Source: an uncultured Erysipelotrichaceae bacterium (GTDB taxonomy: Bacteria > Bacillota_I > Bacilli_A > Erysipelotrichales > Erysipelotrichaceae). Taken from it: a stretch of 32,000 nucleotides of DNA. Below, piece after piece: positions 4,587 to 31,786 of this stretch. The stretch's first letter is position 1; the number at the start of each line of letters is the position of its first letter. The notes beneath the pieces are model-generated. The model saw only the letters and a program-made list of their open reading frames with translations, searched no databases and was not told the DNA's origin. The translations under genes were made by a program, and so were the position numbers. The stretch covers positions 26,357-58,356 of the forward strand of contig CAYNZZ010000009.1 of the NCBI GenBank assembly GCA_964401865.1, read 5' to 3'.

Positions 4587-4934
4587 TTATTGATGGGCTT
4601 TTTTATTAATGGCATATTCGAAGATAAAACCGATTATGATAAATATCAAATATACGCATGACCATATAATCCATAAATTATTTAAACCATCTCCATAATC
4701 GGATTGAAACAGATAAGCCAAGATAAATCCAATGATATAACCGGTGACAGTTAAACTTGGAAGTATTTTCCTTTTTTTAACAATTCCTGAAAAGAAAACA
4801 ACAATAACACCAATGTAAAGAAGAAAGAGTGGGAAGGATTTCATTCCGTGAAAAGAGAATAATGGATATCTAATTGCCAGAAAGGCTAGTGCTAAAATAA
4901 GCAAGGATAATAAACCGGTTTTTCTTTCGCTCAT
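4587..4934 (-). CDS. small integral membrane protein, unknown function (4 predicted hydrophobic segments)
   Basis: 115-aa ORF, strongly hydrophobic (LLSLLILALAFLAI, LFLLYIGVIVVFFSGI, VTGYIIGFILAYLF, IIWSCVYLIFIIIGFIF). ACGGAG lies upstream. It sits 34 nt downstream of apbE on the same strand. Confidence 0.6.
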   Translation of the reverse strand: MSERKTGLLSLLILALAFLAIRYPLFSFHGMKSFPLFLLYIGVIVVFFSGIVKKRKILPSLTVTGYIIGFILAYLFQSDYGDGLNNLWIIWSCVYLIFIIIGFIFEYAINKKAHQ

Positions 4935-4968
4935 ATTTTATACTCCGTTTTTGTTATGTATAAATGTT

Positions 4969-6075
4969 TTATTTGATGGTGTAGTTCGTAAAATCATCAG
5001 TCATATAGACATTTAATCCGTTGATATTTTGAGTTTTGATATCTTCCGGATTATTTTCGCTCAATACCCAAAGAACTTCGATTTCAACATCATAATAATC
5101 TTCGACTCTTTGAATAAACTTCATTCCTTCTTCGATATTCATATTGAAAAGCGAAGTGCTTAAAGCATCCGCTAAACCGCTATTACTCACAATAACGCTT
5201 ACTGATTCATATAAATCTGAAGGATATAGTGTATCGGGATTGATGATATGGTGCATTTTTTTATTGCCCTCAGCAATGTAATAATTGAAGTAATTTCCTG
5301 ATGTGACAACCGATGCACTATTTCTAGTGAAAACATTGATAATACCATCATATGAATATTCTTGACTGCTTCTTGGATCTTGAATAGCTACGCCCCATGG
5401 TGTGCCGTCTGCTTTGTCATTTATTGTTCTGACATTGCCACCACCGACAATGCTGGCGTGTTTGATGCCGTTTTCTTCGAGCATTAAAGCTATCTTTTCG
5501 ACGGTATATCCTTTAGCAATACCACCGACATCAAGCGAAATATCTGGATCATCAATATAGACGGTACTATTTTCTTCATCAATTATGATATGTTCAAAAC
5601 CATGGTGTTTGCTGGCCTCGATTAAGTCATTTTCATCAGGAAGAATACCATAAACACCCGATTCATTCAGTGTTTTACCATCTTCTCTAACCTTATGCCA
5701 AACTTTTAATAAAGCACCCTGAGTAATATCAAATTTACCATTTGAGAGTTCATACATCTCTTTTGAAATCTTCAACATTTCAATGATTTCCTCATCAACT
5801 TCAATCGGTTTGATGCCGGCGTTATCATTAATGGTTTTGATATTATTGATATTTTCATAGTTATTATATATATCAAATAATTTATTATATCTTATGACTG
5901 ATTCTTTAATCATCTCTTCGTACTGGTTATTCTTATTTTCATTTTCAGTATAGATTATCCAGTTCCATACAGTGTTGAATCCGCAGTCATAACATATGTC
6001 GCTATACCTATTTAATGGTTTACATCCCGACAATAAAAAAGTAATTGTTATTAGTGATAAGATGATTTTTTTCAT
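4969..6075 (-). CDS. apbE: FAD:protein FMN transferase (ApbE family) lipoprotein
   Basis: Signal peptide with lipobox LLSGC. ApbE motifs DITQGALLKV, DVGGIAKGY and SVVTSGNY. ATG 6075 is preceded by AGGGAG; the track start at 6078 is an adjacent TTG. The gene is divergent from rnfC. Confidence 0.9.
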   Translation of the reverse strand: MKKIILSLITITFLLSGCKPLNRYSDICYDCGFNTVWNWIIYTENENKNNQYEEMIKESVIRYNKLFDIYNNYENINNIKTINDNAGIKPIEVDEEIIEMLKISKEMYELSNGKFDITQGALLKVWHKVREDGKTLNESGVYGILPDENDLIEASKHHGFEHIIIDEENSTVYIDDPDISLDVGGIAKGYTVEKIALMLEENGIKHASIVGGGNVRTINDKADGTPWGVAIQDPRSSQEYSYDGIINVFTRNSASVVTSGNYFNYYIAEGNKKMHHIINPDTLYPSDLYESVSVIVSNSGLADALSTSLFNMNIEEGMKFIQRVEDYYDVEIEVLWVLSENNPEDIKTQNINGLNVYMTDDFTNYTIK

Positions 6076-6104
6076 CAAAAGCTCCCTTGTAATTTAATGG
6101 AGTT

Positions 6105-6126
6105 ATTATAGCATATATGCTAAAAT
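6105..6126. promoter_or_regulatory. compact bidirectional promoter: two back-to-back extended -10 elements built on a palindrome
   Basis: ATTATAGCATATATGCTAAAAT is a 22-bp palindrome with one mismatch. The plus strand reads TGcTAAAAT (6118..6126) toward rnfC. The minus strand reads TGcTATAAT (complement of 6105..6113) toward apbE. Strong SDs follow on both sides. Confidence 0.5.
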
Positions 6127-6153
6127 ATAACTATTGAATAAGGAGGATAATAT

Positions 6154-7437
6154 ATGGCGTTCTTGATAGGACCAATGCAGAAGCATTTAGATGGTCATAA
6201 AGAACTAACCGCTCATAATGAAATAATTGATTTAACAGCCGGTGATAAAGTTTATATTCCATTAATGCATGGTGGTGCAGTGATAAAATGCCTTGTTAAT
6301 GTCGGAGACGAAGTTAAAATCGGTGATCGTATTGCGGTTAGAGACGATCATTTCTATGTGCCTTTTTTTGCGTCGGTATCAGGCAAAGTGATAGGTATCG
6401 AAAAGCGCATGTCTTCTAGTTTAAGACCGGTTGATCATGTGGTTATTGAAAACGATCATCTCGATACAAAAGCTGAACTTCCTACTCTAGGAAAAGATGC
6501 TTCAAGAGAAGAAATCATTGATTTTATGAAAGATAAGGGACTTGTAGGTTGTGGTGGTGCTGGTTTTCCTTCATACATCAAGTATCAGACTGACAAGTGT
6601 GAAACATTAATCATCAATGCAGTAGAATGTGAACCTTATATTACTGCTGATGCCAGAATGGTAGAAGATAATAAGGAAGACTTTAAATTAGGCGTTCTTT
6701 CGATGCTTAAAGCTTCTAATGCTAAGGTGTGCTACATTGGTATTAAAGAGAGTAAAAAAGAATTAATACCTCAACTTCAAGAATTATTTAAAAATGACGA
6801 TAATGTTGAGGTAAAAGCAGTAAAAGATGTTTATCCAATGGGTTGGGAAAGAACCTTGGTTTTCTCGATTTTAGGCAAGCGATATGAAAAACTTCCTATT
6901 GAAGTAGGAGCCATTGTTTCTAATGCTACGACAGCTATTATGTTGGCGAGGGCAATGAATACCGGCTTACCAATTTATGAAAAGTTAATTACTGTTTCTG
7001 GTGATGGTATTAAAGAACCACACAATGTTTTGTGCCGTGTAGGTACAAGTTTTAAAGATTTAATTAATGCTTGTGGTGGATTAAAAGATGATGCTGATAA
7101 GTTTGCGCTTATCGCTGGAGGGCCAATGATGGGGACTTCGGTTATCAAAGACGAAGTGTGTATTGGTGCTGCCAGTAATGCAGTTACGGTCTTAAAGTAT
7201 GTTGAAGTAAAAAGTATTGCTTGTTTAAGGTGTGGCCAATGTGTTGATCATTGTCCAAGTGGTCTAGAACCGGTCAATATCAACAAGGCATTAAAGGCTA
7301 AAGATCTTGATATGGTAAAGAAACTTCATCCAATGGATTGTATTGAATGTGGTATGTGTACATATGTTTGTCCTTCGAATATCGAAGTGACTGAAGGTGT
7401 ACGCCGTGCTAAGAAAGCTATGGCTTTAAATAGATAA
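6154..7437 (+). CDS. rnfC: Rnf electron transport complex subunit C (NADH/FMN-binding, 2x[4Fe-4S])
   Basis: 427 aa. Contains GCGGAGFPSYIKY (51K-type NADH/FMN site) and two ferredoxin motifs, CLRCGQCVDHCP and CIECGMCTYVCP. RBS AAGGAGG. Confidence 0.92.
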   Translation: MAFLIGPMQKHLDGHKELTAHNEIIDLTAGDKVYIPLMHGGAVIKCLVNVGDEVKIGDRIAVRDDHFYVPFFASVSGKVIGIEKRMSSSLRPVDHVVIENDHLDTKAELPTLGKDASREEIIDFMKDKGLVGCGGAGFPSYIKYQTDKCETLIINAVECEPYITADARMVEDNKEDFKLGVLSMLKASNAKVCYIGIKESKKELIPQLQELFKNDDNVEVKAVKDVYPMGWERTLVFSILGKRYEKLPIEVGAIVSNATTAIMLARAMNTGLPIYEKLITVSGDGIKEPHNVLCRVGTSFKDLINACGGLKDDADKFALIAGGPMMGTSVIKDEVCIGAASNAVTVLKYVEVKSIACLRCGQCVDHCPSGLEPVNINKALKAKDLDMVKKLHPMDCIECGMCTYVCPSNIEVTEGVRRAKKAMALNR

Positions 7438-7449
7438 GGTGGTGTAAGA

Positions 7450-9330
7450 ATGGAATTAAAATATAAAGCAGCGCCTCATGTTAGGCATAATTATTCAACT
7501 GCTAAGATAATGATGCATCTTACTATTGCTTTACTTATCGTTTATGCTTTTGCACTATATCGCAGTTTCACTTTAGGGCAGGCGTATTTAATTAGAGCTA
7601 TCGTACTGATGCTTACTTCTGTTGTAGTAGCGTGTTTGACCGAAACTATTTGGGCACTTTGCACACACAAAAATGTCATTGATTATTTAAAATCATCATT
7701 TCCTTGGGTTACAGCTATTATTTTAACCTTAATGGTTCCTGTTAATACTGAACCATATGCCTTAGGTGTTTCAACTTTCATCGCTATCTTCTTTGGCAAG
7801 TTGGTATTTGGCGGTTTTGGTCAAAATATTTTCAATCCGGCTGCTGTTGGTAGAGCGATTATTTTTTCGAGTTTTGCAGGCAGTATCTCAGCCGATCTAA
7901 TCACTAGCGCCACACCTGCCACTACTCTTGCGAGTGTTGGACAAATTGCTTCATCTGGTGATTTTTCGGTTTTCTTAAATGATTTTGGTGGGTTATTTAA
8001 TTTAGGCCTTGGTATGTATCAGGGGGCAATGGGTGAAACATGTTCAATTTTGATCATTGTTCTTGGCATTTATTTAACTATTGTAAATGTTATTGATTGG
8101 CGTATCCCGGTTACATACTTAGGTGTAATGTTCTTCGGTTCATTATTTGTCGGTATGGGGCATGGTCTTGGCTTTGATTATGCGCTATATTCAATTTTAA
8201 CTGGTGGTGCAATGTTCGGTGCTGTATTTATGCTTACTGATCCGGTCACTAATCCAACTACTAGAGCCGGTAAGATTGTTTTTGCAAGTATTGCCGCTGT
8301 CATTACAATCGTTATCAGATATTATGCTAATCTTCCAGAAGGCGTATTATTCTCTATTCTATTCGCAAATATGCTTACGCCAATTATTGATAAGTTTTTT
8401 GCGGGTAAACAAGTTGCCCGTATCAATAAAAACATCATCAGCACATTCGGAATGGTAATTTTATCCGTTGTCCTGATAGTTGTTATGGGGTTGGGTTTAG
8501 AATCCAAGACATATACGAGTATCTTGGTTCCTGAGTTTAACAGAGGAGCCAGTGTATCATTAAGTGATGATTATAGTATCTATAAACCAAAATTAATATC
8601 TCAAGATGGCGACACATATCAAGTGAGTGCCTTAGGCTATGGTTTATTAGGAACGCAATACGGTGGAGCAGGTGGTGAAAGTCACACAGGCGATACTTAT
8701 AAGAGAAATGAAATGACTATTGTGATTGATTCAAGTACCAATACAGTTGTATCGGTTGAGATTACTTCATTTGGCGATACGACTGGCATAGGTGATAAGG
8801 TAGATGACAAAGGATTCTATTATCAATTTATTGGTGCTGATCTTGATAGCGATGTCGATGTTGTGAGTGGCGCTACATATACATCTAAGTCAGTTAATGC
8901 AGCGGTTAATTTTGTGTTAAACGGCTGTCCTGAACCGGCAAAGATAAATGATGATTACAGTGCTTACAGCGCCACAATTACCGATGCCACGGTTAACGAC
9001 AATGGTGATGGAACTTATCATGTATCAGTAAGAGGCTATGGCTTGCTCGATGTTCAAAGCGGCGGTGCTGGTGGCGTGAGCCACACGGGCGATACTTATA
9101 CGAGAAATGAATTTGATATTACGGTGAAAGACGGCAAGATTGATTCTATCGTATTAACACATTTCGGCGATACAACAGGTATTGGCGATAAAGTTGATGA
9201 TGCATATTTAGAGAGTTTTAATGGAAAGGGTATAGATGATAGTGTTGATTTGATGAGCGGCGCTACCTATACTTCTGTGTCTGCCATAGCTGCTGCGCAA
9301 GCGGTCTTGAGCACAATCATAATTGACTAG
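7450..9330 (+). CDS. rnfD: Rnf subunit D fused to an extra TM helix and two tandem FMN-binding domains
   Basis: Residues 1-~325 are canonical RnfD/NqrB (GQNIFNPAAVGRA, native flavinylation-type site DLITSATP, MLTDPVT, ANMLTPIIDK). Residues 329-350 form an additional hydrophobic helix (IISTFGMVILSVVLIVVMGLGL). Residues ~372-490 and ~500-620 are two homologous FMN_bind-like domains, each ending in D(V/L)xSGATYTS. Confidence 0.9.
   Translation: MELKYKAAPHVRHNYSTAKIMMHLTIALLIVYAFALYRSFTLGQAYLIRAIVLMLTSVVVACLTETIWALCTHKNVIDYLKSSFPWVTAIILTLMVPVNTEPYALGVSTFIAIFFGKLVFGGFGQNIFNPAAVGRAIIFSSFAGSISADLITSATPATTLASVGQIASSGDFSVFLNDFGGLFNLGLGMYQGAMGETCSILIIVLGIYLTIVNVIDWRIPVTYLGVMFFGSLFVGMGHGLGFDYALYSILTGGAMFGAVFMLTDPVTNPTTRAGKIVFASIAAVITIVIRYYANLPEGVLFSILFANMLTPIIDKFFAGKQVARINKNIISTFGMVILSVVLIVVMGLGLESKTYTSILVPEFNRGASVSLSDDYSIYKPKLISQDGDTYQVSALGYGLLGTQYGGAGGESHTGDTYKRNEMTIVIDSSTNTVVSVEITSFGDTTGIGDKVDDKGFYYQFIGADLDSDVDVVSGATYTSKSVNAAVNFVLNGCPEPAKINDDYSAYSATITDATVNDNGDGTYHVSVRGYGLLDVQSGGAGGVSHTGDTYTRNEFDITVKDGKIDSIVLTHFGDTTGIGDKVDDAYLESFNGKGIDDSVDLMSGATYTSVSAIAAAQAVLSTIIID
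8563..9309 (+). repeat. tandem duplicated coding module (two FMN-binding domain copies) inside rnfD
   Basis: Copy 1 is about 8563..8919 and copy 2 about 8947..9309. Aligned strings include GYGLLGTQYGGAGGESHTGDTYKRNE / GYGLLDVQSGGAGGVSHTGDTYTRNE, FGDTTGIGDKVDD in both, and VSGATYTS / MSGATYTS. Similarity is also visible at the nucleotide level (ggcgatacttataagagaaatga vs ggcgatacttatacgagaaatga). Confidence 0.85.
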
Positions 9331-9339
9331 GAGGCATAT

Positions 9340-9840
9340 ATGAAAAAAACAATTACATTAGTATTATTCTTAGGAATTGTGGCCGCTGTTTCAGGTTTAT
9401 GTATCAGTTTGGTAAATGATGTCACTAGTCCGATAATTGCTGAAAATGATATCGCTTCTGAAAAGGCAAATTTAGAATTGATGTTTCCTAATGCTGAATT
9501 TACAGTTATCGATTACTCGGGTGACGATGATGCGGTACTGGGCATCTATGAAGTTAAAGATATTGGCTATGTAGTAAAGGTTGAGGGATATGGATATTCG
9601 TCGACACCAATTGTTGCCTTGATAGGCATGGATAAAGATCTTACCGTTCTTGATGTAATTATCTTATCTAATCAAGAAACAAATGGTTTCGGTAGTCGTT
9701 GCTTTGAAAGAGACTTTGTGGAAAAAGCCTACATTGGCAAGAAAAAAGATGAAGAAGTAGATATGCTTTCAGGTGCAACTTTAACATCGACAGCCATGAA
9801 GAAAATGATCAACTCTGCGCGTATGGCGCTAGGTGATTAG
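9340..9840 (+). CDS. rnfG: Rnf subunit G (membrane-anchored FMN-binding subunit)
   Basis: 166 aa. N-terminal TM anchor, an FMN_bind domain and the flavinylation motif DMLSGATLTS. RBS GGAGG. Confidence 0.9.
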   Translation: MKKTITLVLFLGIVAAVSGLCISLVNDVTSPIIAENDIASEKANLELMFPNAEFTVIDYSGDDDAVLGIYEVKDIGYVVKVEGYGYSSTPIVALIGMDKDLTVLDVIILSNQETNGFGSRCFERDFVEKAYIGKKKDEEVDMLSGATLTSTAMKKMINSARMALGD

Positions 9841-9848
9841 GAGGACTT

Positions 9849-10490
9849 ATGTGGAAAAATTTTAAAAATGGTTTCATTTTAGAAAATCCAGTATTCGGTC
9901 TTTATTTAGGTATGTGTAGTGCGTTAGCTATTTCTACAACATTAAATAATGCAATCGGTATGGGTATGTGTGTTACATTGGTATTGATTTGTTCAAATAT
10001 CATCGTATCAATCATTCGCAAAGTTACACCGGATGAAATTCGTATTCCGGTATATATTGTTGTAATAGCATCTTTAGTTACAATTGTAGAAATGTTAGTA
10101 CATGCGTTTATGCCTGAATTATATAAATCGCTTGGTGTATTCTTATCATTGATTGTAGTAAACTGTATTATTCTTGGACGTGCCGAAGCATTTGCGTCTA
10201 AAAATGGTGTGGTAGCAAGTGCCATTGATGGCTTAGGCATGGGTTTAGGATATACTTTCGCTTTATTGTTAATATCGGTTGTAAGAGAATTTTTAGCGAC
10301 GATGGCAATTACATTTGTAAATCCATTCAATGCCGAACAAGTTTTATTCTCGTTTAGTATTGAAGCTTTGGAACCATTCAAGATTTCTTTATTCTCTTCA
10401 TCTGTTGGTGCATTCTTTACATTTGCGTGCTTTGCGGCATTATTCTCGGTTATTCGTAAGAATATGAAAAAGAAAGAGGAGGCTAAATAA
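9849..10490 (+). CDS. rnfE: Rnf subunit E
   Basis: 213-aa polytopic protein of the RnfA/E-NqrD/E family: NPVFGLYLGMCSALA and LSLIVVNCIILGRAEAFA. Its position after rnfG is as in rnfCDGEAB operons. Confidence 0.9.
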   Translation: MWKNFKNGFILENPVFGLYLGMCSALAISTTLNNAIGMGMCVTLVLICSNIIVSIIRKVTPDEIRIPVYIVVIASLVTIVEMLVHAFMPELYKSLGVFLSLIVVNCIILGRAEAFASKNGVVASAIDGLGMGLGYTFALLLISVVREFLATMAITFVNPFNAEQVLFSFSIEALEPFKISLFSSSVGAFFTFACFAALFSVIRKNMKKKEEAK

Positions 10491-10492
10491 TT

Positions 10493-11068
10493 ATGGGTGA
10501 AATTTTAACTATGGCTTTGGCCGCTATACTTATCAATAATGTTGTGCTATCTAAATTCTTGGGTGTTTGTCCGTTCTTAGGTGTATCTAAAAATTCTAAG
10601 AATGCGATTGGCATGGGTCTTGCGGTAACATTTGTTATTCTGGGTGCTTCACTAATTACATATTTCTTGTATTATGGTGTTTTAGTAAAATTTGAGATTG
10701 AATATATGCAACTTATTACTTTCATTTTGGTAATCGCTGCTTTTGTTCAATTTGTTGAAATGTTTATTAAGAAATATAGTGCGCCATTATATAAGAGTTT
10801 AGGTATCTATTTACCACTTATCACTACTAACTGTGTCGTATTATTCGTGGCAAAAGACAATATTGCACAAGGCTATAATTTAGTTGAAACAATCGTTAAT
10901 TCAATTTCTGTACCTTTAGGTTTCATGCTAGTGCTATATTTATTCTCTAGCATTCGTGAAAGACTTGATAGTTCTGATGTTCCCGAGGCATTTAAAGGCA
11001 ATCCGGTTGCACTAGTTGTTGCAGGTCTTATGGCTTTAGCCTTTAGCGGTTTAGCTGGTATTGTTTAA
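10493..11068 (+). CDS. rnfA: Rnf subunit A
   Basis: 191 aa: NNVVLSKFLGVCPFLGVS and LGIYLPLITTNCVVL, of the RnfA/NqrE type. RBS GAGGAGG. Confidence 0.9.
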   Translation: MGEILTMALAAILINNVVLSKFLGVCPFLGVSKNSKNAIGMGLAVTFVILGASLITYFLYYGVLVKFEIEYMQLITFILVIAAFVQFVEMFIKKYSAPLYKSLGIYLPLITTNCVVLFVAKDNIAQGYNLVETIVNSISVPLGFMLVLYLFSSIRERLDSSDVPEAFKGNPVALVVAGLMALAFSGLAGIV

Positions 11069-11256
11069 TGTCGGCAATTATCTATTTTATTGTTTTGGCA
11101 GCTTTGTATGGAGTATTCTATTATTTTAATCATAAGACTCCAAAACCTGAAGGTTGCGAAAATTTAAAATCTAACTGTGATGGATGTAAGATAACTTCTT
11201 GTATGTCGCATCCTATTCACGATGAAGCTTATAAGGGAGGAAACAAAGATGATTAA
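11068..11256 (+). CDS. small Cys-rich single-pass membrane protein (resembles FeoB-associated Cys-rich membrane peptides)
   Basis: 62 aa. N-terminal TM helix (SAIIYFIVLAALYGVFYYF), then the motif CENLKSNCDGCKITSC (C-x6-C-x2-C-x4-C). Its ATG overlaps the rnfA stop (TAATG) and its 3' end overlaps the rnfB start by 8 nt. That coupling on both sides argues for a real gene. Confidence 0.6.
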   Translation: MSAIIYFIVLAALYGVFYYFNHKTPKPEGCENLKSNCDGCKITSCMSHPIHDEAYKGGNKDD

Positions 11257-11557
11257 TGCTATATTAGTAATGTTGGTTGTTGGTATGGTTTTGGGATTAT
11301 TATTGTCGCTTGCTTCAAAACTGTTCTATGTCGAGATAGATGAAAGACAAGAAAAAGTTACGTCTATGCTTCCAGGGTTCAACTGTGGAAGTTGTGGACA
11401 TCCTGGCTGTAGTGGATTGGCGAGTGCGTTAATAGAAAAAAGTACTGACACAGTGAATTGTAGGCCATGTAAGCCTGAACAAAGGCAAGCTATTGTTGAT
11501 TATCTCAATAGTACGCCAGGTCCAGATGGCGAAGTATTAAAAGTAAAATCAATATAA
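11249..11557 (+). CDS. rnfB: minimal Rnf subunit B: membrane anchor plus N-terminal Fe-S module only, no ferredoxin-type domains
   Basis: 102 aa from ATG 11249; GGGAGG at 11235..11240 gives an 8-nt spacing. TM helix MINAILVMLVVGMVLGLLLSLA, then LPGFNCGSCGHPGCSGLASAL...NCRPC, the RnfB N-terminal C-x2-C-x4-C-x17-C pattern. The ORF stops before any CxxCxxCxxxCP domain. The track start at 11222 has no SD. Confidence 0.8.
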   Translation: MINAILVMLVVGMVLGLLLSLASKLFYVEIDERQEKVTSMLPGFNCGSCGHPGCSGLASALIEKSTDTVNCRPCKPEQRQAIVDYLNSTPGPDGEVLKVKSI

Positions 11558-11561
11558 TAAA

Positions 11562-11589
11562 TAACGGTATCATAGCTATGATACCGTTA
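11562..11589. repeat. perfect 28-nt palindrome between rnfB and mrp
   Basis: TAACGGTATCATAG|CTATGATACCGTTA. No U-tract follows. TATAAT at 11593..11598 comes directly after it, followed by the AAGGAGG of mrp. Confidence 0.7.
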
Positions 11590-11615
11590 CGTTATAATGC
11601 AAAAGGAGGAATAAA

Positions 11616-12437
11616 ATGAGCGAAAATTGTAATCACGATTGCAGTAATTGTAATGAAAATTGTAATTCAAGACAAATCGAACCAAAAGTACCACTAGAAG
11701 ATACTAAAATAAATAAGATTGTTGGTGTTTTAAGTGGAAAAGGCGGCGTCGGCAAATCGATGGTGTCTTCGCTTTTAGCAGTAGAATTAGCTAAAAAGGG
11801 ATATAAGGTTGGTATCATGGACGCTGATATCACAGGTCCAAGTATTCCGAAGATGTTCGATATGCATGAACCTGCATATGGTGATGAAAAAGGTGTTTTC
11901 CCTAATTTGAGTAATAAATACGGTATTAAAATATTATCTATCAATATGATGCTAGAAAGCGAAGATACACCGGTGTTGTGGCGTGGTCCTATCATTGGCG
12001 GAATGGTTACTCAATTCTATACTGAAGCGCATTGGGGTGAATTAGATTATTTAGTAATTGATATGCCACCAGGAACCAGTGATGTTGCATTATCTGTTTT
12101 ACAAGAAATTCCAGTAGACGGTCTGGTAATGGTATCCAACCCATCTAAATTGGTGTCAATGATTGTTTCTAAGGCTATTGTTATGGCACAAAAAACTGAT
12201 ACTAAGATGATTGGCTTAGTTGAAAATATGGCATATGTAAAATGTCCGGATTGCGGAAAGATCATTAAGATTCATGGTGATAACGATACTAAAAACATTT
12301 GTCAAAAATATAATTTGGATGTTTTGGCTAGTTTGCCATTAGATACCGAGTTAGCTAATTTATCTGATGAAGGTAAAATTGAAGATTATAGTAGCAATTA
12401 TATTGATGAATTGGTTGCTTCTGTTATTACATTTTAA
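11616..12437 (+). CDS. mrp: Mrp/NBP35/ApbC-family ATP-binding Fe-S cluster carrier
   Basis: 273 aa. Deviant Walker A GKGGVGKS, the DMPPGTSD motif, a C-terminal CPDCG pair and an N-terminal Cys-rich tail CNHDCSNCNENC. RBS AAGGAGG. Confidence 0.9.
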   Translation: MSENCNHDCSNCNENCNSRQIEPKVPLEDTKINKIVGVLSGKGGVGKSMVSSLLAVELAKKGYKVGIMDADITGPSIPKMFDMHEPAYGDEKGVFPNLSNKYGIKILSINMMLESEDTPVLWRGPIIGGMVTQFYTEAHWGELDYLVIDMPPGTSDVALSVLQEIPVDGLVMVSNPSKLVSMIVSKAIVMAQKTDTKMIGLVENMAYVKCPDCGKIIKIHGDNDTKNICQKYNLDVLASLPLDTELANLSDEGKIEDYSSNYIDELVASVITF

Positions 12438-24822: not shown

Positions 24823-25509
24823 TTATTTATTGATTCTTTTGAGCATTCTTAAATGGAGTCTTCGAGAATTGTTTTTCTTATAGTTGATAATCAGGATAAT
24901 TAAAACGATGATTATCACGATGCCGATCGCTATATCAATATATACTATGTTACTAGCTAAGCTAACAATTATAAGCTGAGTATCGAAATTATCCAAAAGA
25001 TTGATTTTTACATCGTTTAGACCTACATGGCCAAAACTTGAAGAAATAACCTTTCCGGGCATGATAATTGTGAGATTTAATTCGACTCCTAAATCGGACA
25101 GTATTTTAAAATCATTGTTCTCTTTTAAAAAGTCTAAATCAATATCTAAAACACTCAAGAAATTTTCATCGATTATTAAGGTGGTCTTGTTGTCGCTGGT
25201 TTGAATTTTGAAAAGTGTACTTTCAAATGGTTCTTTGCTACTCATCAAAAATCCCTTGTATTCAACATCGTCTATTGTTTTTTCAATTTCAGTAAATTCG
25301 ATGTTATTAGATAACACTTCATTGACATGATTTATAAAATCATTTATTTCTTCTGCTTGGTCGCCTATCATATCGCTTTGAAATAGCAGTTCTCCACTCA
25401 ATGTAATTTTATCGTCTTCTTGTACTTTGACAACTCCATTATATTTTGCACACGAACATAAACTAAAAATAAGGGCGACTAGACACACTATTTTTATTAT
25501 TCTTTTCAT
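24823..25509 (-). CDS. lipoprotein with an additional C-terminal TM anchor, unknown function
   Basis: 228 aa. Signal peptide with lipobox FSLCSC, a C-terminal hydrophobic helix (IAIGIVIIIVLIILII) and a basic tail. Confidence 0.6.
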   Translation of the reverse strand: MKRIIKIVCLVALIFSLCSCAKYNGVVKVQEDDKITLSGELLFQSDMIGDQAEEINDFINHVNEVLSNNIEFTEIEKTIDDVEYKGFLMSSKEPFESTLFKIQTSDNKTTLIIDENFLSVLDIDLDFLKENNDFKILSDLGVELNLTIIMPGKVISSSFGHVGLNDVKINLLDNFDTQLIIVSLASNIVYIDIAIGIVIIIVLIILIINYKKNNSRRLHLRMLKRINK

Positions 25510-27475: not shown

Positions 27476-28279
27476 ATGAAATTAATAGATAATGCTTTAT
27501 CAAAAGATGATTTAATCAAATTATTTATCGAGGTAGGTGTAAAATCAGGAATGATACTTGAAGTGCATTCTTCTCTTTCGAAGTTTGGTTATGTTATAGG
27601 GGGAGCGCAGACTTTTAATGATGCTTTGATAGAAGTATTAGGTTACAACGGAACGATTATTATGCCACTTCAATCAGCATCGATGAATGAACCGAGTTTT
27701 TTTGAATTTCCGCCAATAGCGAGAGAACTATTTTCTAAGTATCGCGATAGTTTGCCGGCATATGACATGCGAAATACTGATAGCGAGATGATGGGCAAAG
27801 TAGTTTCTAATTTAAGAAGAAGGAGCAAATCTATCATATCGTGCCATCCAAATTGTTCGTTTGTTGCTTATGGTAAATATGCAAAAGTTTTATGTGAACA
27901 TCAAAAACTAGATTATGCTTTATCGGATACCTCACCTTTAGGAAGATTGTATGAATTGAAATCACATTGTCTTTTAGCAGGTGTTGATTATGATAATATG
28001 ACTTCGTTGCATTTAAGCGAATATCGTTCTTCAATAAGACCAATTATTTTACAAGGAACAAAGATAATGAAAAATGATAGAGCCGTTTGGGAGAAATATC
28101 TAGATTTAGATTTGAATAGTGATGATGGTTTTCTGGAAATTGGTAAAAACCTTGAAAATAAAAAACTTGTGAACATCATTGATATCCCAAAAGGTAAAAT
28201 GAAATTATTACGAGTTGATGTGGCTGTCGATGAGGGAATGCACTACTTTGATAAGATGTTAGAATATTACAAGAAATGA
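27476..28279 (+). CDS. aminoglycoside N(3)-acetyltransferase family protein (Antibiotic_NAT, PF02522-like; YokD-like)
   Basis: 267 aa. LEVHSSLSKFGYVIGGAQTFNDALIEVLGYNGTIIMP is the characteristic N-terminal block of AAC(3)-family enzymes. The gene starts 3 nt after the kinase stop. Confidence 0.8.
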   Translation: MKLIDNALSKDDLIKLFIEVGVKSGMILEVHSSLSKFGYVIGGAQTFNDALIEVLGYNGTIIMPLQSASMNEPSFFEFPPIARELFSKYRDSLPAYDMRNTDSEMMGKVVSNLRRRSKSIISCHPNCSFVAYGKYAKVLCEHQKLDYALSDTSPLGRLYELKSHCLLAGVDYDNMTSLHLSEYRSSIRPIILQGTKIMKNDRAVWEKYLDLDLNSDDGFLEIGKNLENKKLVNIIDIPKGKMKLLRVDVAVDEGMHYFDKMLEYYKK

Positions 28280-29726: not shown

Positions 29727-29733
29727 TGTAAAT

Positions 29734-29808
29734 GTAACAGGGGTGTCCGTCATGGGCTGAGAAATACCCTTATTACCTGATCTAGGTTATGCTAGCGTAG
29801 GGAGTTAT
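29734..29808 (+). promoter_or_regulatory. TPP (THI-box) riboswitch aptamer (Rfam RF00059 type)
   Basis: GTAAC...GGGGTGTCCGTCATGGGCTGAGAAATACCCTTATTACCTGATCTAGGTTATGCTAGCGTAGGGA...GTTAT. It carries the conserved CUGAGA, ACCUGAUCUGG-like and GCUAGCGUAGGGA cores with a closing P1 helix, and sits upstream of thiT. Confidence 0.9.
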
Positions 29809-29816
29809 CTATCCTT

Positions 29817-29841
29817 GCGCCTTCTATGGAGGTGTTTTTTT
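29817..29841 (+). terminator. riboswitch expression platform: hairpin that sequesters the thiT SD and is followed by a T7 run
   Basis: GCGCCTTC-tat-GGAGGTGT (8 bp including G-U pairs) followed by TTTTTTT. The GGAGG in the 3' arm (29828..29832) is the thiT RBS. Confidence 0.6.
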
Positions 29842-30408
29842 ATGTCAAAAGCAAACAAAACGATCAAAATTATGGTGTATATTGCATTATATGCCGCACT
29901 TGCTACTGGACTTGATATCATCAAAGAGATGTTGTCATTTCTAGATCTTCCTCAAGGTGGTTCAATTAATATTGCCTTAATTCCTATTGTTCTATCTTCT
30001 TTTCATTTAGGGCCAATATATGGCATGGCAACAGGAATCTTATGGATGCTAATATCTTTTGTAGTTACTCCACCATATATTGCATCAAGTATGGCGATAC
30101 TCGGTTTTATCTGTGATTATGTTATTCCATCGATTATTATTGGAGCTTCATCAATGTTTTTTATGAAAAAAAAGAATTACATTATGATGGAACTAGGAAT
30201 AGTTATAACGATGTTTATTAGAACGGTGTCAATTCTAATATCTGGTGCATACGCATGGCCGGGTGATGAAGCCGCTGGTTCGCTTGCTGCTTGGACTGGA
30301 TCACTAGGCTATAATCTCCCATATTGCATTGCGACAACGGTCTTATTACTTGTCATTGTTCCTATTTTATATAAAACGTTGAACAAACAAATTACTAAAA
30401 CAATATAG
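29842..30408 (+). CDS. thiT: thiamine ECF transporter S component ThiT
   Basis: 188 aa from ATG 29842 (MSKANKTIKIMVYIALYAALATGLD...), a six-TM S-component-like protein. It lies directly behind the TPP riboswitch. Confidence 0.85.
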   Translation: MSKANKTIKIMVYIALYAALATGLDIIKEMLSFLDLPQGGSINIALIPIVLSSFHLGPIYGMATGILWMLISFVVTPPYIASSMAILGFICDYVIPSIIIGASSMFFMKKKNYIMMELGIVITMFIRTVSILISGAYAWPGDEAAGSLAAWTGSLGYNLPYCIATTVLLLVIVPILYKTLNKQITKTI

Positions 30409-31057: not shown

Positions 31058-31071
31058 TTTACTAGAAGATC

Positions 31072-31175
31072 TGTTTCAGGGCAAGGTGCAATTCCTTACT
31101 GGCGGTATAGTCCGCGAGCGAAAGCTGAATGGGTTAAATTCCCATACCAACGGTAAAGTCCGGATGAAAGAAACA
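31072..31175 (+). promoter_or_regulatory. FMN riboswitch (RFN element, Rfam RF00050 type) aptamer
   Basis: TGTTTC-AGGGCAAGGTGCAATTCCTTACTGGCGGTATAGTCCGCGAGC...GGGTTAAATTCCCATACCAACGGTAAAGTCCGGATGAAA-GAAACA. It has the conserved RFN cores and a P1 helix TGTTTC/GAAACA. Confidence 0.92.
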
Positions 31176-31195
31176 TTTTATTTCTTTTTCAATTT

Positions 31196-31224
31196 AAGCC
31201 CTAAACTATTAGGGCTTTTTGTTT
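31196..31224 (+). terminator. FMN riboswitch terminator (expression platform)
   Basis: AAGCCCTAA-acta-TTAGGGCTT followed by TTTGTTT. It lies between the aptamer and the ribU RBS. Confidence 0.8.
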
Positions 31225-31249
31225 CAGACTTCTTAGAATAGAGGAAAAC

Positions 31250-31786
31250 ATGAATCAAAAAATTCAAAAAGTCGCCAGAATGGGAATATTAATCGCCATT
31301 TCAATCGTATTAGTGTATTTTGTCCATTTTCCAATTTTCCCCCAAGTCAGGTTTTTGGAATACGATCCTGCTGATGTTTCAATTTTGATTGTCGGGTTTG
31401 CATATGGCCCGATTAGTGGCATAATCGTTACTGTGATTGCGTCGATTATTCAAGGCTTGACCGTCAGTAGTCAAAGTGGAATATATGGAATAATCATGCA
31501 TATTATTGCCACTAGCTTTCTAGTTGGAATCTCAAGTTTTATCTATCGACGAAATAAAACGATGAAAGGAGCGATTATTAGTCTTGTGTTTGGGTGTTTA
31601 GCAATGCTTGGCGCAATGATAATCGCTAATTTGATTGTCACTCCTTATTTTATGCATATCACTGTACAAAGCTTAATACCGCTAATGCCATTTATCGCTT
31701 TATTCAATCTTATAAAATCAATCATTAATTCAATAATCACATTCTTTCTATATAAAAGAATTTCTTCTTTTCTACATCTGCGATAG
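31250..31786 (+). CDS. ribU: riboflavin ECF transporter S component RibU
   Basis: 178 aa. KVARMGILIAISIVLVYFVHFPIFP...LEYDPADVSILIVGFAYGP matches the RibU/FmnP pattern. The gene is preceded by the FMN riboswitch. RBS AGAGGAAAA. Confidence 0.88.
   Translation: MNQKIQKVARMGILIAISIVLVYFVHFPIFPQVRFLEYDPADVSILIVGFAYGPISGIIVTVIASIIQGLTVSSQSGIYGIIMHIIATSFLVGISSFIYRRNKTMKGAIISLVFGCLAMLGAMIIANLIVTPYFMHITVQSLIPLMPFIALFNLIKSIINSIITFFLYKRISSFLHLR

Follow-up and report, generated by a model that had tools for sequence, protein, structure and literature searches.

Introduction

Among anaerobes, Rnf is central to energy conservation, and in every characterized complex ferredoxin enters through a polyferredoxin domain at the C terminus of RnfB (PMC12174285). 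In the solved complex this portion, FdII+III, holds further clusters, sits firmly on RnfC and provides the ferredoxin docking site (PMC12174285, PMC9588780). Here we describe an rnf operon in which RnfB ends before that domain. It lies in a stretch of 32,000 nucleotides, hereafter the window, from an uncultured Erysipelotrichaceae bacterium (assembly GCA_964401865.1, contig CAYNZZ010000009.1, positions 26,357 to 58,356, forward strand). Like the canonical complexes of C. tetanomorphum (7ZC6), A. vinelandii (8AHX) and A. woodii (9ERI), it comprises six homologous subunits encoded in one operon and shares all of their cofactor ligands, including those of the membrane-anchored, mobile FdI of RnfB; an ApbE gene is adjacent. 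Unlike them, it has no C-terminal RnfB domain of two to seven clusters that accepts ferredoxin and binds RnfC. It also carries, between rnfA and rnfB, a gene for a cysteine-rich peptide of the 60-residue class, and its RnfD is extended by an eleventh transmembrane (TM) helix and two flavin mononucleotide (FMN)-binding FMN_bind domains that are predicted to be external.

The idea of an outward flavin path from Rnf is itself anticipated in the literature: multi-flavinylated RnfG was proposed to give electrons an additional way out to extracytosolic acceptors (Méheust et al. 2021, eLife; PMC8238504). Those clusters, like this locus, have ApbE-type FMN_bind domains added to Rnf on the predicted outer face. 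Holdemania and other relatives carry one or two extra domains on RnfG, whereas this locus has two on RnfD, attached through a TM helix. The RNF clusters of that study were defined by a KEGG RnfB hit, and its text, supplementary tables apart, mentions neither a minimal RnfB nor the cysteine peptide (PMC8238504). Electrons can also be diverted from the classical loop to other acceptors by the Methanosarcina acetivorans Rnf with its multiheme cytochrome MmcA (PMC8238504; bioRxiv 10.1101/2022.07.20.500911). There, as here, an extra extracytoplasmic redox part is added to Rnf, but the outlet consists of hemes and RnfB is a full polyferredoxin, in contrast to the predicted flavins and minimal RnfB of this locus.

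The flavin-based extracellular electron transfer system of Listeria (Ndh2, demethylmenaquinone (DMK), EetA/EetB, PplA, FmnB) has an ApbE-family lipoprotein transferase in common with this locus. In both, an FMN_bind pair outside a monoderm membrane would be the last membrane-proximal carrier, and NADH is a possible electron source. PplA, however, is a separate lipoprotein, whereas here the two domains follow a TM helix at the C-terminal end of RnfD itself; and the Listeria system crosses the membrane by a quinone, whereas transfer here would use the Rnf cofactors. None of the Ndh2, EetA/B, Dmk and PplA families was found among the scanned open reading frames (ORFs) of the window, nor was a separate lipoprotein with a flavinylation motif. 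The membrane core is also related to that of Na+-NQR, in which the ferredoxin domain of NqrF feeds the D/E cluster, as the small mobile Fe-S domain would feed the A/E cluster here; NqrA carries no cofactors, whereas RnfC here does, and NqrF is absent. Finally, for Nqr/Rnf-like systems there is a proposal of unidirectional flow from NAD(P)H to the outside. Those systems lack the flavinylation threonine of RnfD, which is conserved here as T155, and the two-subunit forms (Méheust 2021; Huang 2024) fuse NqrB/RnfD to a cytosolic PF00175 NAD-binding domain, for which there is no match here.

In the literature searched, we came across no account of a minimal RnfB, a peptide between RnfA and RnfB or RnfD-FMN_bind fusions in Erysipelotrichaceae; public annotation names the proteins simply RnfD and RnfB. 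The minimal RnfB, the obligate cysteine peptide and the eleventh TM helix of RnfD thus appear to be undescribed as a family-wide design.

Results

RnfB is reduced to a membrane anchor and FdI

The genes and layout reported by a first-pass annotation, made from the sequence alone, were all borne out by the ORF list and by Pfam and NCBIfam scans of the window. A divergent apbE is followed by rnfC-rnfD-rnfG-rnfE-rnfA, the gene for a 62-residue cysteine-rich peptide and then a 102-codon rnfB, so that all six subunits, RnfC, D, G, E, A and B, are encoded together in a single operon. We compared this arrangement with a census of 34 loci of the Erysipelotrichaceae type that extend to the junction of rnfA and rnfB, plus outgroups, from a few dozen species; loci carry L numbers where they must be told apart.

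The minimal rnfB (11249..11557, + strand) starts at the ATG at 11249. A ribosome-binding site, AAGGGAGG, lies upstream at 11233-11240 and supports this start, which also agrees with gene calls on independent contigs. The only Pfam match is PF04060 (FeS). The protein consists of a TM anchor, the mobile [4Fe-4S] FdI/FeS domain (C46, C49, C54 and C71) and a tail, TPGPDG..LKVK; the four cysteines and the tail are conserved throughout the family. It ends at residue 102, and Pfam and motif scans found neither a Fer4 match nor a CxxCxxCxxxC motif. It aligns to residues 1-74 of the solved RnfB chains, which are 174, 274 and 333 residues long, and to nothing further; the FdII+III portion is absent. In a confident AlphaFold2 (AF2) model (pLDDT 91.5) the soluble portion shares its fold with part of the corrinoid iron-sulfur protein (CFeSP), on whose N-terminal [4Fe-4S] domain, the archetype of PF04060, it can be superposed. 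Homologs fall into 79 clusters, nearly all of 100-108 residues (the exception is one 74-residue sequence), and where aligned they end at the same point.

The first-pass annotation described this RnfB as having no ferredoxin-type domains, which is correct for Fer4, but the four cysteines of a [4Fe-4S] FeS domain are kept. Its broader phrase, "ferredoxin side missing", is overstated. Across 33 loci the TM segment and FdI cysteines of RnfB and the four cysteines of RnfA and RnfE are invariant, which argues that the cytoplasmic Fe-S route is under selection.

The cofactor sites of the core subunits are retained

RnfC, the NADH/FMN-binding subunit (6154..7437, + strand; TIGR01945, 361 bits against a cutoff of 246), matches PF01512, PF13375 and PF10531. 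It has the GCGGAGFP NADH/FMN site and two CxxCxxCxxxCP [4Fe-4S] motifs (CLRCGQCVDHCP and CIECGMCTYVCP), whose cysteines are invariant at 8/8 positions in 33 sequences. RnfG (9340..9840, + strand) is a TM anchor with one FMN_bind domain (PF04205, E=3.9e-14) and a DMLSGAT motif at residues 141-147, the acceptor being T147 (codon 9778-9780). RnfE (9849..10490, + strand; TIGR01948, 219.6 bits, cutoff 213.4) and RnfA (10493..11068, + strand; TIGR01943, 238 bits, cutoff 229) have the cysteine ligands of the intramembrane [2Fe-2S] cluster: C23 and C106 of RnfE are both present in 33/33 sequences, and C26 and C114 of RnfA in 33/33 and 32/33, one sequence being gapped there. NCBIfam scores fell under the cutoff for rnfD (187.5 against 207), rnfG (TIGR01947, 52 against 102) and rnfB (58.5 against 68.7); despite this, each aligned to the correct subunit. 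Judged by these ligands, the core cofactor sites are complete: FMN/NADH and two [4Fe-4S] clusters in RnfC, T155 in RnfD, T147 in RnfG, [2Fe-2S] in RnfA/E and [4Fe-4S] in RnfB.

In the window as a whole, ferredoxin-type cysteine motifs occur in RnfC only, and flavinylation-type motifs are confined to RnfD and RnfG.

A cysteine-rich membrane peptide is encoded between rnfA and rnfB

The ORF between rnfA and rnfB (11068..11256, + strand) shares a single base with the stop codon of rnfA and extends 8 nt into rnfB, an arrangement from which we predict that it is translationally coupled to both. Its 62-residue product starts with a TM helix and carries a KTPKPEGC motif and four cysteines spaced C30-x6-C37-x2-C40-x4-C45. 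A word-indexed homolog search gave four close relatives. We therefore used exhaustive phmmer, which recovered only 66 representative clusters from 1.84 billion proteins; with few exceptions they measure 50-70 residues. In this family N21, P27, C37, C40 and C45 are invariant, the fourth cysteine is nearly so, and the motif reads KTPxPEGC. The gene of the peptide is specific to this clade, where it brings the rnf operon to seven genes.

We asked what the peptide might be related to. A search of the PDB found no relative. The sole Pfam similarity was to PF12669 (FeoB_associated), at 18.3 bits against a cutoff of 27, with sub-threshold matches in 9 of 41 family members. An identity with NqrM (DUF539) was considered and rejected: NqrM is absent from the Pfam families reported for these 41 members at E<=1. 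A functional analogy with NqrM, which would rest on the single TM helix and four cysteines, is possible. When the peptide family was aligned by hhalign with the short-RnfB family, the probability was 65% and E=6e-5, with the TM helix and C-x2-C-x4-C in register, a score that the TM segment may inflate. This is suggestive, but not conclusive, of a degenerate copy of the N-terminal module of RnfB (TM helix plus PF04060). We infer that the peptide may act as an extra metal- or cluster-binding subunit, or as an assembly factor for the minimal input module.

RnfD carries two additional flavin domains predicted to lie outside

The 626-residue RnfD (7450..9330, + strand) matches PF03116 over residues 6-321 and is followed by two FMN_bind (PF04205) domains. 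Its core, residues 1-324 (7450..8421), aligns by phmmer over the full length of the solved chains 7zc6_D (1e-39) and 9eri_D, which stop where the window protein goes on, and in Foldseek it matches RnfD/NqrB with a TM-score of 0.80 (normalized to the target). The native acceptor motif is DLITSAT; its threonine, T155 (codon 7912-7914), is invariant in 59/59 sequences and is the counterpart of Thr153 of C. tetanomorphum RnfD (7ZC6). The AF2 model (pLDDT 88.5, from 59 homologs) has a helix at residues 325-347 (8422..8490), past the last core helix, and then two beta-rich domains, and it is confident at the first of them. Foldseek gave the extension a weak match to NqrC/RnfG.

Extra domain 1 spans residues ~365-495 (8542..8934), with the acceptor T476 in DVVSGAT (codon 8875-8877). 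Extra domain 2 spans residues ~496-626 (8935..9327), where PF04205 matched in two stretches, with the acceptor T606 in DLMSGAT (codon 9265-9267). The two are 52% identical. Position 476 is threonine or serine in 55/55 homologs having domain 1, and position 606 in 40/40 having domain 2. In closest relatives (L005:10001-11842 and L006:650-2491; RnfD 71% identical) the extra-domain motifs are SAAT or SSAT, with the acceptor threonine retained. This implies that the glycine of [S/T]GA[S/T] is not strictly required in this family, as is also the case for the TSAT/TTAT of native RnfD.

On which side of the membrane do these domains lie? In the C. tetanomorphum structure FMN is attached to Thr153 of RnfD, and the last ten residues of the protein are cytoplasmic, resting on RnfC (PMC9588780). 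With one TM helix added to a cytoplasmic C terminus, residues 348-626 should be outside. Lysine and arginine are enriched ahead of helix 325-347 and a neutral stretch lies behind it, so that the assignment draws on both homology to 7ZC6 and charge distribution. The extension is thus predicted to be within reach of the ApbE lipoprotein. This FAD:protein FMN transferase (MMKKIILSLITITFLLSGC...; 4969..6078, - strand; PF02424, E=3.2e-66) has the lipobox LLSGC and is divergent from rnfC, a position that is the same in most related loci. Altogether we predict four covalent-FMN acceptor sites on the outer face, at T155, T476 and T606 of RnfD and T147 of RnfG. The first-pass annotation had proposed four outward sites, and the conservation of the acceptors in RnfD (59/59, 55/55 and 40/40) together with the topology derived from solved RnfD upholds it.

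The design is family-wide, and its two unusual halves can be separated

Both the ~60-residue peptide and a ~100-residue RnfB devoid of Fer4 motifs were present in 34/34 Erysipelotrichaceae-type loci, and the two outgroup loci with a polyferredoxin RnfB of 271-301 residues (Treponema, L035; Clostridia, L038) had no peptide. RnfD-FMN_bind fusions are numerous, and their length classes match 0, 1, 2 or 3 extra domains; named carriers are all Erysipelotrichaceae (Anaerorhabdus, Solobacterium, Holdemania and Massilimicrobiota). An RnfD identical to that of the window is encoded on 24 metagenome contigs, and the same architecture occurs in the isolate genomes of Holdemania filiformis DSM 12042 and Massilimicrobiota timonensis. 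The operon neighborhood is conserved and of a housekeeping kind (NifU, S1, PGI). We conclude that this is the standard Rnf of Erysipelotrichaceae, found in Holdemania, Massilimicrobiota, Anaerorhabdus and many metagenome-assembled genomes (MAGs).

RnfD bears between 0 and 3 extra FMN_bind modules, and RnfG between 0 and 2; Holdemania has one extra module on RnfD and three FMN_bind domains in RnfG. In three relatives of the same synteny (L044-L046), a short RnfB and the peptide are found but there is no extra module at all. Their RnfD (372-386 residues) nevertheless keeps the eleventh TM helix and a poorly conserved outer tail of 25-40 residues, so that either the domain was lost and the helix kept, or the helix predated acquisition of the domain. 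Conversely, Candidatus Treponema excrementipullorum (L035:8538-14075) has a 373-residue RnfG with two FMN_bind domains beside a 271-residue polyferredoxin RnfB and no cysteine peptide, which indicates that extra outer flavins need no short RnfB. Together these loci show that short RnfB and extra flavins are not obligately coupled. The first-pass annotation had by implication linked the two functionally and had suggested looking for co-occurrence of long RnfD with short RnfB. Over the 34 loci and the outgroups, short RnfB always came with the peptide and not always with extra flavins, and the implied link was not supported.

Two loci depart further from the operon. In Enterococcus sp. HY326 (L037:8566-11572) and a Peptoniphilaceae MAG (L040:8229-11281), rnfC-rnfD is followed by an unannotated ORF of 193 or 256 residues, and rnfG, rnfE, rnfA and rnfB were undetectable nearby; these pairs look like stand-alone RnfCD modules. 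A gene of ~231 residues 3' of rnfB in L042, L043 and L045 was considered as a part of the system and set aside, being absent from the window. In L041 the gene in the same position carries an RcpC domain (PF16976).

Flanking genes and other features of the window

The range given by the first-pass annotation, 4587-12437, does contain all Rnf genes, but its first ORF (4587-4934, - strand) is not apbE: it encodes an unrelated 115-residue multi-TM membrane protein of no family, with a weak DUF6609 match below cutoff. This ORF was detected solely in L001, a locus identical to the window, and it is outside the Rnf system and not conserved with it. At the other end, an mrp/apbC-type Fe-S cluster carrier ATPase (11616..12437, + strand; PF10609, E=6e-85; NF041136, 288 bits, below cutoff) does follow rnfB, as had been noted, but it adjoins rnfB in the closest relatives only (L001 and L005), so that it may be an accessory but does not belong to the conserved set. 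Between the two genes, right behind the rnfB stop codon, is a perfect 13-bp inverted repeat or hairpin (11561..11590), without a clear U-run on the + strand. It may be an operon end, an attenuating structure or a processing site, and its role is uncertain.

Farther along the window, an FMN riboswitch (RF00050, 106 bits) stands directly 5' of a gene for a RibU-like S component of an energy-coupling factor (ECF) riboflavin transporter (31068-31786). Import of riboflavin by this organism is therefore probable, a point of interest for the supply of flavin to the four or more predicted covalent FMN sites. A thiamine pyrophosphate (TPP) riboswitch likewise lies 5' of a ThiT-like thiamine transporter (29729-30408). 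A 228-residue predicted lipoprotein (24823-25509, - strand), which matches no Pfam family, has the lipobox LCSC and a TM helix at its C terminus; lacking a flavinylation motif, it is no obvious Rnf partner. Among housekeeping genes, a member of the aminoglycoside 3-N-acetyltransferase family (27476-28279; PF02522, E=2e-56) could be an intrinsic resistance determinant.

Discussion

We lean, with modest confidence, toward the view that the product of this locus is a complete Rnf-type ion-motive redox complex, inherited vertically and of Erysipelotrichaceae-specific design, with an outward flavin outlet. On the cytoplasmic side, RnfB is pared down to its membrane anchor and FdI, always in the company of the four-cysteine membrane peptide. 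On the outer side, the eleventh TM helix would return the C terminus of RnfD across the membrane, so that its tail presents two ApbE-flavinylatable FMN_bind domains beside RnfG. Electrons could reach the outer FMN node by two routes: from NADH through RnfC to RnfD, or from a low-potential cytoplasmic carrier, docked in trans on the minimal RnfB/RnfC surface, to RnfA/E. At this node the path would divide, with electrons either closing the classical loop or passing by way of the tethered extra flavins to extracytoplasmic acceptors. These might be the secreted flavinylated reductases that are abundant in Erysipelotrichaceae, free flavins or other oxidants.

An outward outlet is a plausible, and the most economical, reading of the extra domains. 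Their variable number and position fit an outlet that is a modular accessory, rather than a core that was rebuilt. Holdemania filiformis derives growth and ATP from urocanate and has many secreted flavin reductases whose membrane donor is undefined (bioRxiv 10.1101/2022.12.26.521950); through such reductases it also uses compounds besides urocanate as respiratory acceptors (bioRxiv 10.1101/2022.12.26.521950). The same species has this type of Rnf (L010). Two observations weigh against an outlet. The three relatives without any extra domain (L044-L046) indicate that it is dispensable for this Rnf type. Scans of the window and of the sequence flanking the operon in Holdemania, Massilimicrobiota, Anaerorhabdus and MAG loci turned up housekeeping genes only, and neither a PF00890 reductase nor another FMN_bind protein.

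A first alternative, which we regard as unlikely, is that ferredoxin has been given up and that the complex is an NADH:extracytoplasmic-acceptor oxidoreductase, passing electrons from NADH through RnfC to the outer flavins and on to an acceptor. In one version FdI would shuttle electrons from the RnfC clusters to RnfA/E, which would make the complex an NQR-like, possibly Na+-pumping, quinone-independent respiratory entry. Such a role would accord with an RnfB that lacks the domain taking ferredoxin in every characterized complex. FdII+III sits on RnfC in the solved complex, so that its absence exposes RnfC to the mobile FdI, and the window holds no ferredoxin-type motif besides those of RnfC. 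The respiratory ATP gain of H. filiformis with extracytosolic reductases and an undefined membrane donor points the same way. So do RnfC-RnfD modules with no G, E, A or B nearby (L037 and L040, from other Firmicutes), which suggest that the NADH half can be deployed alone. Yet extra flavin domains are missing from L044-L046, where RnfB is short and the peptide present, and Treponema pairs a multi-flavin RnfG with a full RnfB. The cluster cysteines of RnfB and those of RnfA/E are invariant, so that a cytoplasmic Fe-S interface is maintained, and a small soluble ferredoxin could dock straight on the minimal RnfB or on RnfC. The first-pass annotation had reached a similar position, with NADH-to-outside transfer in place of ferredoxin:NAD+ activity. 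Its outward flavin branch remains plausible, but replacement of the ferredoxin role is unsupported as it was put, given the strict conservation of the RnfB-RnfA/E route.

It is also doubtful that the complex is a conventional ferredoxin (or flavodoxin):NAD+ pump, in which a free ferredoxin bound in trans replaces the missing RnfB domain and the extra FMN_bind domains serve only within the complex and hand nothing to outside acceptors; they might, for example, be further shuttles like RnfG, buffer electrons or protect the outer flavin node. This would suit the conservation of every core ligand, the tethering of the extra domains to RnfD right by RnfG, the absence of operon-linked acceptor genes from every locus examined and the existence of relatives that function without the extra domains. 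However, one to three extra modules have been repeatedly gained or kept on two subunits, with strict acceptor threonine or serine, which suggests a selected function. Holdemania, with its reported arsenal of secreted flavin reductases, has three such modules, and there are precedents for a flavin-domain relay to outside reductases in Listeria PplA and in the proposal for multi-flavinylated RnfG.

A stronger form of the ferredoxin-free idea, which we think quite improbable, would make the minimal RnfB and the Cys4 peptide a new input module. FdI would again shuttle from RnfC to RnfA/E, and the whole would be a Na+- or H+-pumping NADH:extracytoplasmic-flavoprotein oxidoreductase whose tethered outer flavins feed the large arsenals of secreted flavin reductases. 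If true, it would in effect be an NQR without the quinone and would explain the respiratory ATP gain of Erysipelotrichaceae. There is next to no chance that the short rnfB and long rnfD are artifacts of truncation, frameshift, assembly error or pseudogene formation, a view refuted by the identical RnfD on 24 independent metagenome contigs, by the isolate genomes, by the confident AF2 models and by the uniform length and shared end of the 79 RnfB clusters, the single 74-residue sequence apart.

The complete Rnf-type complex with an outward flavin outlet, which we prefer, bears on a whole family of gut bacteria. Its members have an Rnf without the polyferredoxin domain of RnfB, always accompanied by a small cysteine-rich membrane peptide, and up to three or four flavin carriers are predicted to be displayed outside the membrane. 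This Rnf variant offers a natural experiment on the minimal electron-input module of an Rnf/NQR-type pump. It is also a testable candidate for the missing membrane donor to the secreted flavin reductases with which Holdemania and other Erysipelotrichaceae respire numerous dietary and host metabolites.

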